Shown here in pieces: positions 13,096 through 16,290 of a stretch of DNA of 64,000 bases. The stretch comes from Turneriella sp. (GTDB taxonomy: Bacteria; Spirochaetota; Leptospiria; Turneriellales; Turneriellaceae). The stretch lies in contig CBDIID010000003.1 of assembly GCA_965279515.1 (NCBI GenBank), forward strand, positions 2,336,001 to 2,400,000, written 5' to 3'. Each line of letters starts with the position of its first letter. Position 1 is the stretch's first letter. The notes beneath the pieces are model-generated. The model was not told the DNA's origin. It made no database searches and saw nothing but the letters and a program-made list of their open reading frames with translations. The translations under genes and the position numbers were made by a program.

Positions 13096-13530
13096 GTGCA
13101 CGGTTCGCAGCGCCCCGTTATCAAATACCTCGTGCGTTCCGGTGAGCTTGCGGTAAAAAATCTTGAAGTCGGCATGTCAAAACAGCCGCTGCGCGGTTTG
13201 GCGGCTTCGCACCTTGAAATTATTACCTATCTGCTGCGCAAGGGCCCTGCGACGATGCAGTCCTTGTCGCGCGCCCTCGAACGCGACAAATCTACGGTGA
13301 CGGTTCTTGTGCGCAAGCTCTCTCAGATGGGTTTTGTCGCCAAAAAAGGCGTGGCGGGCGACGGCCGCGTGACGATGGTTTCACTGACGGCAAAAGGTTT
13401 GGCCCTCAGAACACCTGTGCTGCGCGTGTTCGTAAAAACGGAACAGGCCTTGGGAAAAAACCTTTCCGCAGAAGAACGGGCAAACCTGTTTGTTCTGCTT
13501 GAAAAAGTCTACTCGGGGCTGAAGGACTAA
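13096..13530 (+). CDS. MarR family transcriptional regulator
   Basis: TMQSLSRALERDKSTVTVLVRKL..GFV...DGRVTMVSLTAKG. Confidence 0.88.
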   Translation: MHGSQRPVIKYLVRSGELAVKNLEVGMSKQPLRGLAASHLEIITYLLRKGPATMQSLSRALERDKSTVTVLVRKLSQMGFVAKKGVAGDGRVTMVSLTAKGLALRTPVLRVFVKTEQALGKNLSAEERANLFVLLEKVYSGLKD

Positions 13531-14384
13531 AACCGGTAAAAGGCGCGGGTGTTCGCGGTGCAGGCTGCGGCGATAACCTCGACACTCTCCCCGCGCAATA
13601 CCGAAAGGAAATCCAACGTGTGCTTCACATAACCCGGCTGGTTAATTTTGCCGCGGTGCGGAATCGGCGCCAGAAACGGCGCGTCAGTTTCAATCAGCAT
13701 GCGGTCGAGCGGGCAGGCTTTTGCCGCTTCTTGTAACGCCGCTGCGTTCTTGAAGGTGACAATGCCCGAAAAAGAAATATAACAACCCATCGCCAGGAAT
13801 TCTTCCATCTCGGGTTTTGTGCCGGTAAAACAATGAATCAAAGTCGGAATACCTTCGGCTTCGGCTTTCAGCACCGCCACGGTGTCGGCATGCGCGTCAC
13901 GGGTGTGCAGCGCAATGCCGCGGTTCACGCGCCGGGCCGCACGCACGAAGTCAATGAACACCTTCTTCTGGATATCCGCCTGATCGGCGTAATAATGGTA
14001 GTCGAGGCCAATCTCGCCCACCGCAACAAATTTCGGGTCGTCTTTATTCTCTTCGATGAACCTCAGGCCAAAATCGGAATCTTCTGTCGTCGGCGAAGAC
14101 GACATCGTGTCGGCCGCCGACCCAGCGCGTCCATGCGCATTGGTACTCGCTTCGCCGGGGTGGTGGCCGATCGTGTAATAGACGTCGATGAGCTGCGAGG
14201 TATGCGCCAGCGTGCGCGCCCAGAGCATCGCCGCCTTGTCGGCACCGATCTCGACGAGCGCACCCACGCCGTTCTCGGCGAGAGTGCGCGTGACTTCTTC
14301 AACTCCCAGACCCCGCTCTATCACCATGTCCAAGTGGCAGTGAGAGTCTATTAAATTTACCCGTGGCCGGAGTTGAACCGGCAC
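13527..14384 (-). CDS. tatD: TatD family deoxyribonuclease (start uncertain; overlaps tRNA-Leu)
   Basis: IDSHCH, VGEIGLDY, LHTRDA, HCFTG and IETDAPFLAP. The nearest canonical start (GTG CCG GTT CAA) lies inside tRNA-Leu; the frame is open up to GTG 14435. Confidence 0.9.
   Translation of the reverse strand: MPVQLRPRVNLIDSHCHLDMVIERGLGVEEVTRTLAENGVGALVEIGADKAAMLWARTLAHTSQLIDVYYTIGHHPGEASTNAHGRAGSAADTMSSSPTTEDSDFGLRFIEENKDDPKFVAVGEIGLDYHYYADQADIQKKVFIDFVRAARRVNRGIALHTRDAHADTVAVLKAEAEGIPTLIHCFTGTKPEMEEFLAMGCYISFSGIVTFKNAAALQEAAKACPLDRMLIETDAPFLAPIPHRGKINQPGYVKHTLDFLSVLRGESVEVIAAACTANTRAFYRF
14089..14138. repeat. Nested palindromic element inserted in frame in tatD
   Basis: gtcggcg(14089)...cgccgac(14121) encloses cgacatcgtgtcg, plus a gcgcgtccatgcgc hairpin at 14125-14138. 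It encodes the atypical segment NAHGRAGSAADTMSSSPT. Confidence 0.6.
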
Positions 14385-14441
14385 GGCATTGCTGCCCCAG
14401 GATTTTAAGTCCTGTATGTCTACCAATTCCATCACACGGGC
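14358..14441 (-). tRNA. tRNA-Leu (anticodon TAA)
   Basis: GCCCGTG..TGGAATTGGTAGACA..CAGGA CTTAAAA TCCTG, long variable arm, GGTTCAACTCC..CACGGGT A; CCA not encoded. Confidence 0.95.
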
Positions 14442-14453
14442 TCTTTTTAAAAA

Positions 14454-14497
14454 GGCAAAAACAACACACCCCCGTGAGGGGGTGTGTTGTTTTTGCC
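14454..14497. terminator. Perfect 20-bp hairpin between tRNA-Cys and tRNA-Leu
   Basis: ggcaaaaacaacacaccccc-gtga-gggggtgtgttgtttttgcc; followed by TTTTT on the minus strand. Confidence 0.65.
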
Positions 14498-14503
14498 AGA
14501 TTG

Positions 14504-14574
14504 AGGTGTCGCCCGGATTTGAACCGGGGGTGGAGCTTTTGCAGAGCTCTGCCTTACCACTTGGCTACGACACC
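14504..14574 (-). tRNA. tRNA-Cys (anticodon GCA)
   Basis: GGTGTCG TAGCCAAGTGGTAAGGCA GAGCT CTGCAAA AGCTC ...GGTTCAAATCC GGG CGACACC T; U discriminator. Confidence 0.96.
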
Positions 14575-14790
14575 GATTTGGTTGGCGTGAAAACCGAGAT
14601 CGCCGAAGCGACAGCAGCGAAGCGCTTTAGCAGCAACTTCGCCCCGCGAATTTGCGAGGCTGGAGCTTCGGCTCGGTTTTCCGCCAACCGATATTGTGCG
14701 GAAAATACTACGAAAAACACAGGTCGTCAAGGATTAAGGGGGTTGCAAAGCCGTAAACACCTCGCAATACGGCCGTGGCCGGCACTTCGA

Positions 14791-16290
14791 ATGAACTGGT
14801 TCATGAATCGATCACTTTCGCCACCGTTAATCCAGGTCTTGTTATTATCATGTCTGGGCATAGCCTTTCTTTCTGCCTGGCCCCAATTTAACGCCCTAAG
14901 CGCCATCGCACCGCCAGGCCATCCGGTGAGTGCCGCCTTCCGGCTTGTCTCGCAGCTACTGCTGTTTGCCCCGGTGGCGCTGTTGCAACTCATTCCCGAA
15001 CGCCGGAGTATTCAGAGCCCTCGGTGGACATCGTGGATTAACGCGTTGCTGCTTTCCGGAATCATGCTCTATGCATATCTGCCGGCGCCCTTCTTCGATT
15101 ATGTGTGGGATGTTTTTCTCATCGAGAGTATTTTTGTTTTCCTGATTTCACGCATCTGCCTGGTAATTGAAGGCCGCGAAGATTTATTTCCCTGGCCAAT
15201 GCGGGTGTTGCTTTTTAAACTCATGCTGTGTATGGGGATAGTTAAATTTCTGCACGGCATGCCCGAATGGCGCTCCGGTCTGGCGTTAAAGTATTTCTGG
15301 CAAAACCAGCCAATGCCCGGGCACATGGCGTGGTGTCTGGCGCAGTTACCTGATTTCATGCAGCAAATTATGGCGGCGTTTGTTTTTCTGGTCGAGGTAC
15401 CGGGGCCATTTCTGATCTTCGGGGGCGGCAAATCCAGACGGCTGTTTTTTTTCCTGAACCTGATGCTCCAGTTTGGTATCTTCATTTCGGGTAACTATGG
15501 ATTTTTTAATATCCTTACCGTGGTGCTCAGTATTTCTCTATGGGATATGCCAAAGCTAGATGCATTGCAGCATGGTCGTTCTTCCTTACCACCTTTGCAT
15601 CCGTTGTTGAGGAAAATAGTTTTATGCGCCTGCAGCGTTATCCTCGCCGGCTGGTGTTTCACATCACTATGGTATCTGTACCGGTGCGTCTTTCCGGGAC
15701 CAAAATATTTGCACGAGACAAGTTGGATTTTTCTGGGCAATGAAGAGCAGCGCGCCGTACCGGCTCCGATTCGAACCGCACTTAAAGTCTATGCCGCCGC
15801 GAAGATCAGCAATCCCTATGCCCTGTTTGGCATGATACCCAAGTACCGGCTGGAAATCGGCCTGGAAGGCAGCGCGGACGGAGTCGAATGGAAAAAATAC
15901 CAGTTTAAAATCAAACCCGACAAGGCGCAGACCGCACCAATTTGGTACGCTCCGCACCACTGGCGGCTCGATCACCAGATGTATTATGAATCCTTCCGTA
16001 TCCGCGACCCCGCCCTGCATGAAAAATATAGCTACTTTCTGGGCGTGCGGTGGATGCCCCACTTTCTTCATGGGCTGCTCACCCAAAAGCCCGGTATCTC
16101 CCGATTGTTGGAAAACAATCCCTTTCCGGAGCACCCCCCGCTGCGCTTGCGTTTTACCTATACGTTTTACGAGTTTAATAACCGGGACGAATTTCTCGCG
16201 ACACAAAAATACTGGAAAACGACTCCCGCGCGCAGCGGCAAATTTTTTGAAGGCATTCTCGACCTGGGGAATATCCACCAATTACCGTGA
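14791..16290 (+). CDS. Lipase maturation factor (LMF) family membrane protein
   Basis: WDVFLIES, LLFKLMLCMGIVK, QPMP, ISGNYGFFN, NPYALFG and PHHWRLDHQMYY. The ORF-track start at 14389 runs over the tRNAs and was rejected. Confidence 0.85.
   Translation: MNWFMNRSLSPPLIQVLLLSCLGIAFLSAWPQFNALSAIAPPGHPVSAAFRLVSQLLLFAPVALLQLIPERRSIQSPRWTSWINALLLSGIMLYAYLPAPFFDYVWDVFLIESIFVFLISRICLVIEGREDLFPWPMRVLLFKLMLCMGIVKFLHGMPEWRSGLALKYFWQNQPMPGHMAWCLAQLPDFMQQIMAAFVFLVEVPGPFLIFGGGKSRRLFFFLNLMLQFGIFISGNYGFFNILTVVLSISLWDMPKLDALQHGRSSLPPLHPLLRKIVLCACSVILAGWCFTSLWYLYRCVFPGPKYLHETSWIFLGNEEQRAVPAPIRTALKVYAAAKISNPYALFGMIPKYRLEIGLEGSADGVEWKKYQFKIKPDKAQTAPIWYAPHHWRLDHQMYYESFRIRDPALHEKYSYFLGVRWMPHFLHGLLTQKPGISRLLENNPFPEHPPLRLRFTYTFYEFNNRDEFLATQKYWKTTPARSGKFFEGILDLGNIHQLP

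Follow-up and report, generated by a model that had tools for sequence, protein, structure and literature searches.

Comparative sequence evidence that tatD of Turneriella may start inside the preceding tRNA-Leu(UAA) gene

In a free-living spirochaete genus, the sole tRNA-Leu(UAA) gene appears to be used a second time, as the first two dozen codons of tatD. The arrangement lies in a stretch of 64,000 nt (hereafter the window) from a Turneriella sp. genome of 4.9 Mb (assembly GCA_965279515.1, contig CBDIID010000003.1, positions 2,336,001 to 2,400,000). Comparison with relatives shows that the nucleotides between the tRNA and the TatD domain, the spacer, are under selection to stay in frame and open, and hence appear to be translated. 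We consider it rather likely that ribosomes on transcripts not yet matured begin tatD at an ATG or GTG inside the tRNA-Leu gene.

Results

The tRNA-Leu(UAA) gene runs into tatD without a canonical start codon

The locus is an array of two tRNA genes followed by tatD, with these features:

14702..14730, minus strand: promoter-like match, TTGACG, 17 nt, TATTTT (consensus scan alone)
14503/4-14574, minus strand: tRNA-Cys(GCA), first gene of the tRNA-Cys / tRNA-Leu / tatD array (ARAGORN; RF00005, 64.7 bits)
14454..14497, minus strand: terminator-like element between tRNA-Cys and tRNA-Leu, a 20-bp hairpin with a T run behind it (consensus scan)
14358..14441, minus strand: tRNA-Leu(UAA), 84 nt, no encoded CCA (ARAGORN; RF00005, 55.4 bits)
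14430..14435, minus strand: in-frame GTG (14435-14433) and ATG (14432-14430) at tRNA positions 7-12, the likeliest candidate starts (ORF scan)
14424..14426, minus strand: in-frame TTG in the D-loop region, an alternative candidate start (ORF scan)
14382..14384, minus strand: in-frame GTG where the variable arm meets the T stem, an alternative candidate start with an overlap of just 27 nt
14349..14357, minus strand: spacer AAT TTA ATA; the linker is variable, with 3 to 47 codons in relatives, and this is its shortest form
13527..14348, minus strand: predicted metal-dependent hydrolase domain of the TatD/YcfH type, with the Asp codon as its first and the stop codon at 13527-13529 as its last (PF01026, TIGR00010)
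14334..14342, minus strand: His-Cys-His codons, the metal-binding HxH (H32 and H34 invariant)

The Rfam gathering score for RF00005 is 29 bits, and ARAGORN and Rfam concur on the ends of tRNA-Leu(UAA). On the minus strand, the discriminator base is followed by AAT TTA ATA GAC TCT CAC TGC CAC. The Asp-x-His-x-His motif of the hydrolase thus begins after a gap of three codons (AAT TTA ATA), and the HxH begins at the sixth codon past the tRNA. The original prediction had stated that tatD has no canonical start codon outside tRNA-Leu, and this is exact, as the sequence and the tRNA coordinates from the two programs agree. Before the HxH, ATG, GTG or TTG codons in the tatD frame are found inside the tRNA only, with none in the spacer of the window. 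The four codons that it had placed there (GTG, ATG, TTG and GTG at 14435, 14432, 14426 and 14384) were recovered on the ORF, where they lie 29, 28, 26 and 12 codons before the Asp codon. The tRNA is also open in this frame as had been claimed, over all 28 codons. Upstream of the Asp codon the frame as a whole has no stop for 72 codons, and no start codon beyond those four; the listed ORF extends over 13527..14435 on the minus strand and encodes 302 aa. Taken alone, a gap of three codons with no start codon is nothing special. What is beyond chance, judged from the relatives described below, is the conservation of the gap, with its frame, throughout the genus.

By its predicted structure and its conservation, the tRNA-Leu(UAA) is a bona fide gene. 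It is a type II tRNA with a 12-nt insertion in the variable region and the anticodon taa (RF00005 and ARAGORN), and it is present in single copy as the sole gene for anticodon UAA among the 39 tRNAs of the genome, none of which has an encoded CCA (0/39). Two CCA-adding-type enzymes are encoded in the genome. Acceptor-stem position 6 and its 3′ partner change together between the genus and the outgroups, which is modest evidence as it concerns one compensated pair. Within the genus the sequence of the tRNA is nearly invariant, and translation of the tRNA part would therefore leave no evolutionary trace.

The surroundings of the tRNA offered little that is particular to tatD. The promoter-like match at 14702..14730 sits ~128 nt upstream of tRNA-Cys and is possibly the promoter of the array. 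The consensus scan detected no promoter directly upstream of or inside tRNA-Leu, and a -10-like hexamer in the anticodon loop, noticed by eye, was discarded as a promoter part for its wrong spacing. In relatives, hairpins between tRNA-Cys and tRNA-Leu are found in the same place with a different sequence. Similar hairpins precede several other tRNAs of the genome, so that the one at 14454..14497 is not specific to tatD. For the same kind of reason we rejected an “AAAGA” box that, together with the hairpin before tRNA-Leu, might have formed an element dedicated to ribosome binding or control: in this genome, many tRNAs have A/T-rich leaders and hairpins in front of them.

The spacer is kept in frame and free of stop codons in relatives

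To compare the junction between species we used 34 genomes of the order, among them 20 of the family and 14 of the genus including the window genome, and defined the spacer by the 3′ end of the tRNA and the Asp codon of tatD. The order tRNA-Cys / tRNA-Leu(UAA) / tatD is kept in the genus, in four further genomes of the family and in nine genomes of other families. The tRNA is not adjacent to tatD in G017, G021, G023 and G030, and no tatD match was obtained in G014, which is 54% complete. In G032 the contig ends within the locus, and the comparison did not include G027.

Within the genus the spacers measure 9, 78, 30, 12, 57, 81, 42, 42, 42, 12, 39, 42, 141 and 42 nt, and all 14 lengths are multiples of three. 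The same holds for the four genomes from other genera of the family (30, 18, 18 and 12 nt; multiples of three in 4/4), three of which contain a spacer ATG. Outside the family the lengths are 24, 31, 23, 52, 33, 32, 79, 32 and 111 nt, of which three of nine are multiples of three. All nine of these spacers contain a canonical start (in L071 and L073 as judged by eye), and the ATG of the outgroup tatD genes is positioned 3-28 nt after the tRNA. Scanning metagenome contigs by pattern yielded 12 loci; tRNA-Leu precedes tatD in seven, in frame in all seven, and the remaining five are other tRNAs without tatD.

For the stop codon statistics we used 18 loci, namely the 14 genomes plus L039, L040, L042 and L049, which gave 17 distinct spacers; L038, L041 and L047 were left out, as their spacers repeat those of L013, L040 and L039. 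All 17 distinct spacers have a length that is a multiple of three. They contain no stop in 251 codons of the tatD frame, versus 10 and 14 stops in the 234 codons of each of the other two frames, and a stop-free result was obtained in one of 5000 mononucleotide shuffles. As genomes of one genus are kin, these counts overstate independence. Mapped onto a quick maximum-likelihood TatD-domain tree, with poor support for 7 of its 13 inner branches, the spacers of the 14 genomes require at least nine changes in length.

The substitutions within the spacer resemble those of a coding sequence. L003 and L040 share a 10-codon spacer with nine nucleotide differences, eight of them at third positions (six synonymous and two non-synonymous codons). 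In other pairs the spacer is a linker that evolves fast, with many Ser, Gly, Pro, Ala, Thr and Glu residues. A 156-nt contig from a close relative has the same 9-nt spacer and differs from the window at 15 positions; 13 of the 14 differences listed are at third positions, and two of its third-position differences are synonymous changes in the spacer. This contig has TTG at the TTA of the window, a synonymous change. The original prediction had called for a check of relatives at this codon, and there we found TTA, CTG, CTT, CTC, ATC or ATT besides the TTG of the one contig. The position directly before Asp always encodes Ile. By this variation the TTA position has the pattern of an internal Leu/Ile codon, not that of a start codon.

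If the spacer is translated, as its frame and its lack of stops argue, initiation must take place at or upstream of the first spacer codon. The frame evidence places the putative start there and no finer.

We used a second tRNA/protein gene junction of the same lineage as a control. The gene ribE is located behind tRNA-Gly(UCC) in 27 of 30 loci, at a distance of 0 to 82 nt, and its start is always an ATG or GTG that falls on the conserved N-terminus of the family. Overall, 8 of the 27 distances are multiples of three; among the 13 genus genomes, this is so for one. Since the ribE distances are not kept in frame, the frame conservation is peculiar to the tRNA-Leu/tatD junction of the family, where the start codon is missing.

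Candidate start codons lie within the tRNA

In 11 of the 14 genus genomes the spacer contains no ATG, GTG or TTG; a canonical start is present in the other three (ATG in L002, GTG in L011 and TTG in L012). Seven of the 14 have an in-frame stop at most two codons 5′ of the tRNA. Five of these seven (L003-L007) also lack a spacer start, and the canonical starts of their open frame are just the four within the tRNA. A start upstream of the tRNA was rejected on these grounds, with a stop right before the tRNA in 7/14 genomes, and also as the called upstream extensions differ in every homologue.

We also inspected the gene calls of 35 genus-level homologues. Of these, 26 begin at the in-tRNA ATG or at a codon upstream, one begins at the T-stem GTG (P0035, NCBI-annotated), one has a start of its own, and seven were called from a Met behind the HxH, which would delete metal ligands. 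As gene calls are made regardless of the tRNA, they provide no independent evidence on the start.

None of the four in-tRNA candidates is preceded by a convincing Shine-Dalgarno sequence (duplex energies of +0.8 to -6.5 kcal/mol against the 16S tail). Excerpts of a study of Leptospira interrogans describe about 440 mRNAs with leaders shorter than 10 nt (PMC5243855), and the lineage clearly uses starts without a Shine-Dalgarno sequence near RNA 5′ ends. The most likely start sites appear to be the ATG at tRNA position 10 or the GTG at position 7, with the T-stem GTG as a possible site. A folded and rapidly processed pre-tRNA is a poor substrate for initiation, and the yields of TatD would therefore be low.

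Public RNA data touch the locus mainly through its tRNAs. The eight runs on record as RNA (18 runs counted as RNA or guessed RNA) each matched 0.06-0.10 of the sampled words, essentially tRNA parts. At the locus, the contigs of two runs (X1 and X7) consisted of just the tRNAs and the 156-nt piece of the relative. One X7 metatranscriptome contig joins the tRNA-Cys and tRNA-Leu of a relative and ends 3 letters past the 3′ end of tRNA-Leu; contigs cannot show RNA ends, and a DNA origin of this one is possible.

Starts behind the tRNA or from a second initiation event

A different account is that tRNA excision acts as punctuation, releasing a trailer that serves as a leaderless or near-leaderless mRNA and is translated from a non-canonical start, either a near-cognate codon next to the domain (ATA, ATC or ATT; TTA or CTG) or the first codon of the trailer, CAT or AAT. 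The lineage does place starts directly behind tRNAs. The ribE start is found 0-10 nt after the tRNA in 10 of 27 loci; in the window genome the distance from tRNA to start is 2 nt for ribE, 9 nt for prfA and 8 nt for a STAS gene; and the short distance of the outgroup tatD ATG fits the same habit. The codon before Asp, being always Ile, is near-cognate, and a start at the first codon of the trailer would demand spacers in multiples of three just as a start within the tRNA does.

A start next to the domain, however, gives no account of why spacers of 9-141 nt remain in frame and stop-free, nor of the synonymous changes at the 5′ end of the spacer, and the TTA position varies like any internal Leu/Ile codon. 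For a start at the first codon the difficulty is another one: the trailer begins with CAT, AAT, CAG or CAC, none of which is near-cognate to AUG. The same A/C-A beginning is seen past most tRNAs of the genome, so that the beginning of the trailer looks like a processing preference. To our knowledge, leaderless initiation in bacteria requires a 5′ AUG or GUG. A canonical start near the 5′ end of the trailer, the mark of a tRNA-punctuated mRNA, is present in ribE, prfA and the STAS gene and was not found in tatD of the window or of 11 of the 14 genus genomes. We think it unlikely that tatD is started in this way. The original prediction had offered two alternatives, and they fared differently: a dual-use tRNA/mRNA gains from spacers that are in frame and stop-free throughout the genus, and ATA/TTA initiation on the released trailer loses by the same result, as it leaves the frame conservation of the spacer unexplained.

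The in-tRNA starts could also keep the spacer open for a different end, with two proteoforms or a regulatory read-through, active TatD coming mainly from another, unrecognised initiation event and the long form being a by-product or a regulator. Three of 14 genomes have a canonical spacer start beside an open in-frame tRNA, which fits two proteoforms, as does the lack of a Shine-Dalgarno sequence at the in-tRNA starts. In the other 11 genomes, however, no alternative canonical start is available before the HxH, and a mere by-product would not cause selection to keep the frame open through nine or more changes in length. We give this account a slim chance.

tatD encodes a predicted complete hydrolase under purifying selection

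The product is predicted to be a complete TatD/YcfH hydrolase and a nuclease. It matches PF01026 with 229.8 bits (cut-off 27) and TIGR00010 with 224.5 bits (cut-off 206), in both cases over profile positions 1-252 of 253. Position 1 of TIGR00010 falls on the TTA codon (Leu28), and residue 3 of E. coli YcfH (1yix) aligns to the same Leu28, so that a normal N-terminus needs two codons more than the spacer offers. The metal and catalytic residues D30, H32, H34, E141, H177, H201 and D251 are invariant in an alignment of 31 sequences, in which the TatD of the window also carries a unique 19-residue insertion. In a sequence search, the best matches to solved YcfH/TatD chains reached E = 4e-47. In the AlphaFold2 model (mean pLDDT 77.8), strands alternate with helices and the core has high confidence; the prediction is confident for most of the barrel, and residues 1-25, which are encoded by the tRNA, have a pLDDT <50 and are predicted to be disordered.

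A comparison with L012 gave 86 codons with synonymous changes only versus 20 codons with amino acid changes, and nucleotide differences of 19/11/96 by codon position. The frame of the window gene is intact, with no stops and no frameshifts, and tatD is the only TatD-family match above the cut-off in the genome. By this pattern of substitution, tatD is a functional gene under strong purifying selection on the own lineage of the window.

These results bear on a start-loss pseudogene, which the original prediction had allowed for and in which tatD of the window genome would no longer be translated. With no canonical start outside the tRNA, the shortest of all spacers and the unique insertion, the copy of the window might look like one. 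The excess of synonymous change against L012 speaks against this, as do the retained catalytic residues, the undamaged frame, the lack of a second TatD-family match above the cut-off, and the presence of the same layout in 11 of the 14 genus genomes. A pseudogene is highly improbable. A sequencing or assembly error hiding an ATG or TTG, also allowed for at the outset, has a negligible chance: the one relative contig with TTG at the TTA of the window differs there by one synonymous change, out of 13 differences at third positions, the window is identical over 13900-14700 to contigs of two public runs (X19 and X22; 0 differences, possibly its assembly source and so not independent), and independent genomes and metagenome contigs equally lack a start.

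Discussion

A route from pre-tRNA to TatD

Translation of tatD from within tRNA-Leu could proceed as follows. tRNA-Cys, tRNA-Leu and tatD would be transcribed as one RNA. Most copies would be matured into tRNA, and the cut at the 3′ end of the tRNA would remove the start region of tatD. On copies that are not matured, a ribosome would start at the in-tRNA ATG or GTG, read through the rest of the tRNA and the short variable linker, and continue into the TatD domain. The product would be a normal TatD hydrolase with a disordered tail, consisting of about 10-26 tRNA-coded residues plus the linker of 3-47 residues. Recruitment of the ribosome may follow the short-leader mode, common among the related Leptospira, which does without a Shine-Dalgarno sequence; if RNase P made the 5′ end, 9 nt would remain before the ATG. 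On any one RNA, tRNA maturation and TatD synthesis would be mutually exclusive, and it is a reasonable inference that tRNA processing competes with translation of TatD.

A likely history begins with an ancestor of the family in which the ATG of tatD stood a few nucleotides past the tRNA and by chance in frame with it, as is seen in L022 and L023. Once initiation within the tRNA yielded a functional protein, loss of the ATG would have been tolerated, as would drift of the spacer as a linker.

A more far-reaching possibility is a feedback loop, in which TatD would be made just from unprocessed pre-tRNA, its level would report the backlog of precursors, and the enzyme may itself trim tRNA 3′ trailers. 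No RNase Z equivalog was found above the cut-off in the genome (82 versus 293 bits). Enzymes of the TatD family are 3′-5′ exonucleases, as described for E. coli TatD in excerpts of one study (PMC4176340), and the human TATDN2 acts on RNA too according to excerpts of another (PMC10711561). It is these activities, together with the RNase Z result, that suggest a role in trimming. Such a role would explain why tatD has stayed beside tRNA-Leu(UAA) across the order, and we regard the loop as clearly unlikely.

Comparison with known arrangements

In mitochondria, tRNAs and protein genes are arranged head to tail, and excision of the tRNAs sets the ends of the mRNAs (the tRNA punctuation model of Ojala, Montoya and Attardi). 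The locus described here resembles this in having a tRNA followed by a protein gene with no Shine-Dalgarno sequence; ribE, prfA and the outgroup tatD genes, with starts 0-28 nt past the tRNA, fit the model. In mitochondrial punctuation the frame starts after the tRNA, whereas the frame signature of tatD points to a start at or before the first codon of the trailer. As the trailer of tatD contains no start codon, excision of the tRNA would here destroy the message instead of creating it.

The thrU-tyrU-glyT-thrT-tufB operon of E. coli is a bacterial tRNA-mRNA co-transcript, in which tufB has its own leader, Shine-Dalgarno sequence and AUG well outside the last tRNA. It shares with our locus the succession of tRNA genes and a protein gene on the same strand and differs in that no tRNA overlaps the coding sequence. 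tmRNA (SsrA), SgrS/SgrT and RNAIII/hld have their coding part in one segment and their structural part in another, and there is no initiation in tmRNA. Like tatD with its tRNA, these combine a non-coding role and a translated frame in one RNA; at tatD, however, the own nucleotides of an essential elongator tRNA would be codons of an enzyme.

Leptospira interrogans, from the same class, has many mRNAs without a Shine-Dalgarno sequence and with leaders of 0-10 nt, and an RNA starting at the 5′ end of the tRNA would fall in this range. In the excerpts concerned, these short-leader 5′ ends are primary starts of ordinary mRNAs, and none is reported in or at a tRNA (PMC5243855), unlike what we propose for tatD. 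Plants have dicistronic tRNA-mRNA transcripts, which according to excerpts of one source carry the tRNA-like part in the untranslated region and are linked to RNA mobility (PMC8166872). They too join a tRNA and an adjacent protein gene on one transcript. The plant case is eukaryotic and its tRNA-like part is, in the same excerpts, not read as codons, whereas the tatD frame would use the tRNA. In none of the nearest known arrangements that we compared do the nucleotides of an elongator tRNA serve as enzyme codons. A search of full-text literature, with most subscription journals outside its coverage, returned no report of a bacterial coding sequence starting in a tRNA gene.

In genome annotation, a stretch of DNA counts either as a tRNA gene or as protein-coding sequence, never as both. 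Pipelines that mask the tRNA shorten the gene, as in 7 of the 35 homologues, and others let the coding sequence cross the tRNA without comment. If tatD does start within tRNA-Leu(UAA), one segment of RNA would be under the constraints of both tRNA structure and protein frame. It would have a built-in competition between RNA maturation and translation, which could set the level of a nuclease. The locus would also offer a handle on initiation that depends on the 5′ end and not on a Shine-Dalgarno sequence in Leptospira-like bacteria.

The coding sequence of tatD and its surroundings

The TatD protein of the window carries a 19-residue insertion behind the GHHPGEA motif, encoded at about 14088–14144 on the minus strand. 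This insertion is unique to the window, being absent from all 30 other sequences in the alignment, and it is predicted to be disordered. At locus L010 of a relative (G008:C5:32758-36519), a single TAA codon lies in frame within the tatD match, and upstream of the tRNA-Leu gene the DNA is an extended stretch of C and G. Together these look like a problem in the assembly of this MAG rather than biology.

Two open reading frames lie close to tatD on the opposite strand:

13096–13530, plus strand: 144-aa ORF, convergent with tatD
14389–16290, plus strand: 633-aa ORF as listed, its start antisense to both tRNAs

The 3′ end of the 144-aa ORF overlaps that of tatD (stop at 13527–13529, minus strand) by 4 nt. 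From a reading of its translation, this ORF looks like a putative MarR-type regulator. The true start of the 633-aa ORF is probably far downstream of the listed one, and its overlap with the tRNAs probably arises only because ORFs were listed mechanically.

tRNA leaders and 3′ processing

Several tRNA genes of the same genome, among them those for tRNA-Met, tRNA-Ala(GGC), tRNA-Val(UAC), tRNA-Leu(CAA), tRNA-Leu(GAG) and tRNA-Arg(CCU), are preceded by a hairpin 5–15 nt upstream, followed by an A/T-rich leader. The hairpins could be terminators of the upstream units or an element of the pre-tRNA leader. None of the 39 tRNA genes in the genome encodes CCA, and two genes of the PolyA_pol/CCA-adding type are present. 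No RNase Z equivalog was found over the cut-off in this genome (best match 82 bits vs. 293).

Genes starting directly behind a tRNA

Outside the window, three further genes of the same genome start nearly at the 3′ end of a tRNA on the same strand (L075, G000:C3:242300-243100; L076, C3:2311150-2312450; L077, C3:2608050-2608600). The gap is 2 nt between tRNA-Gly(UCC) and ribE, 9 nt between tRNA-Arg(CCU) and prfA, and 8 nt between tRNA-Ser(GGA) and a gene encoding a STAS anti-sigma antagonist. At all three junctions a Shine-Dalgarno sequence cannot fit between the tRNA and the start. Across the order, ribE adjoins tRNA-Gly in 27 of 30 loci, with a gap of at most 10 nt in 10 of these. With their starts abutting tRNAs, the ribE, prfA and STAS junctions resemble the tRNA punctuation of mitochondria and are a mitochondrion-like form of it, here in a free-living bacterium.
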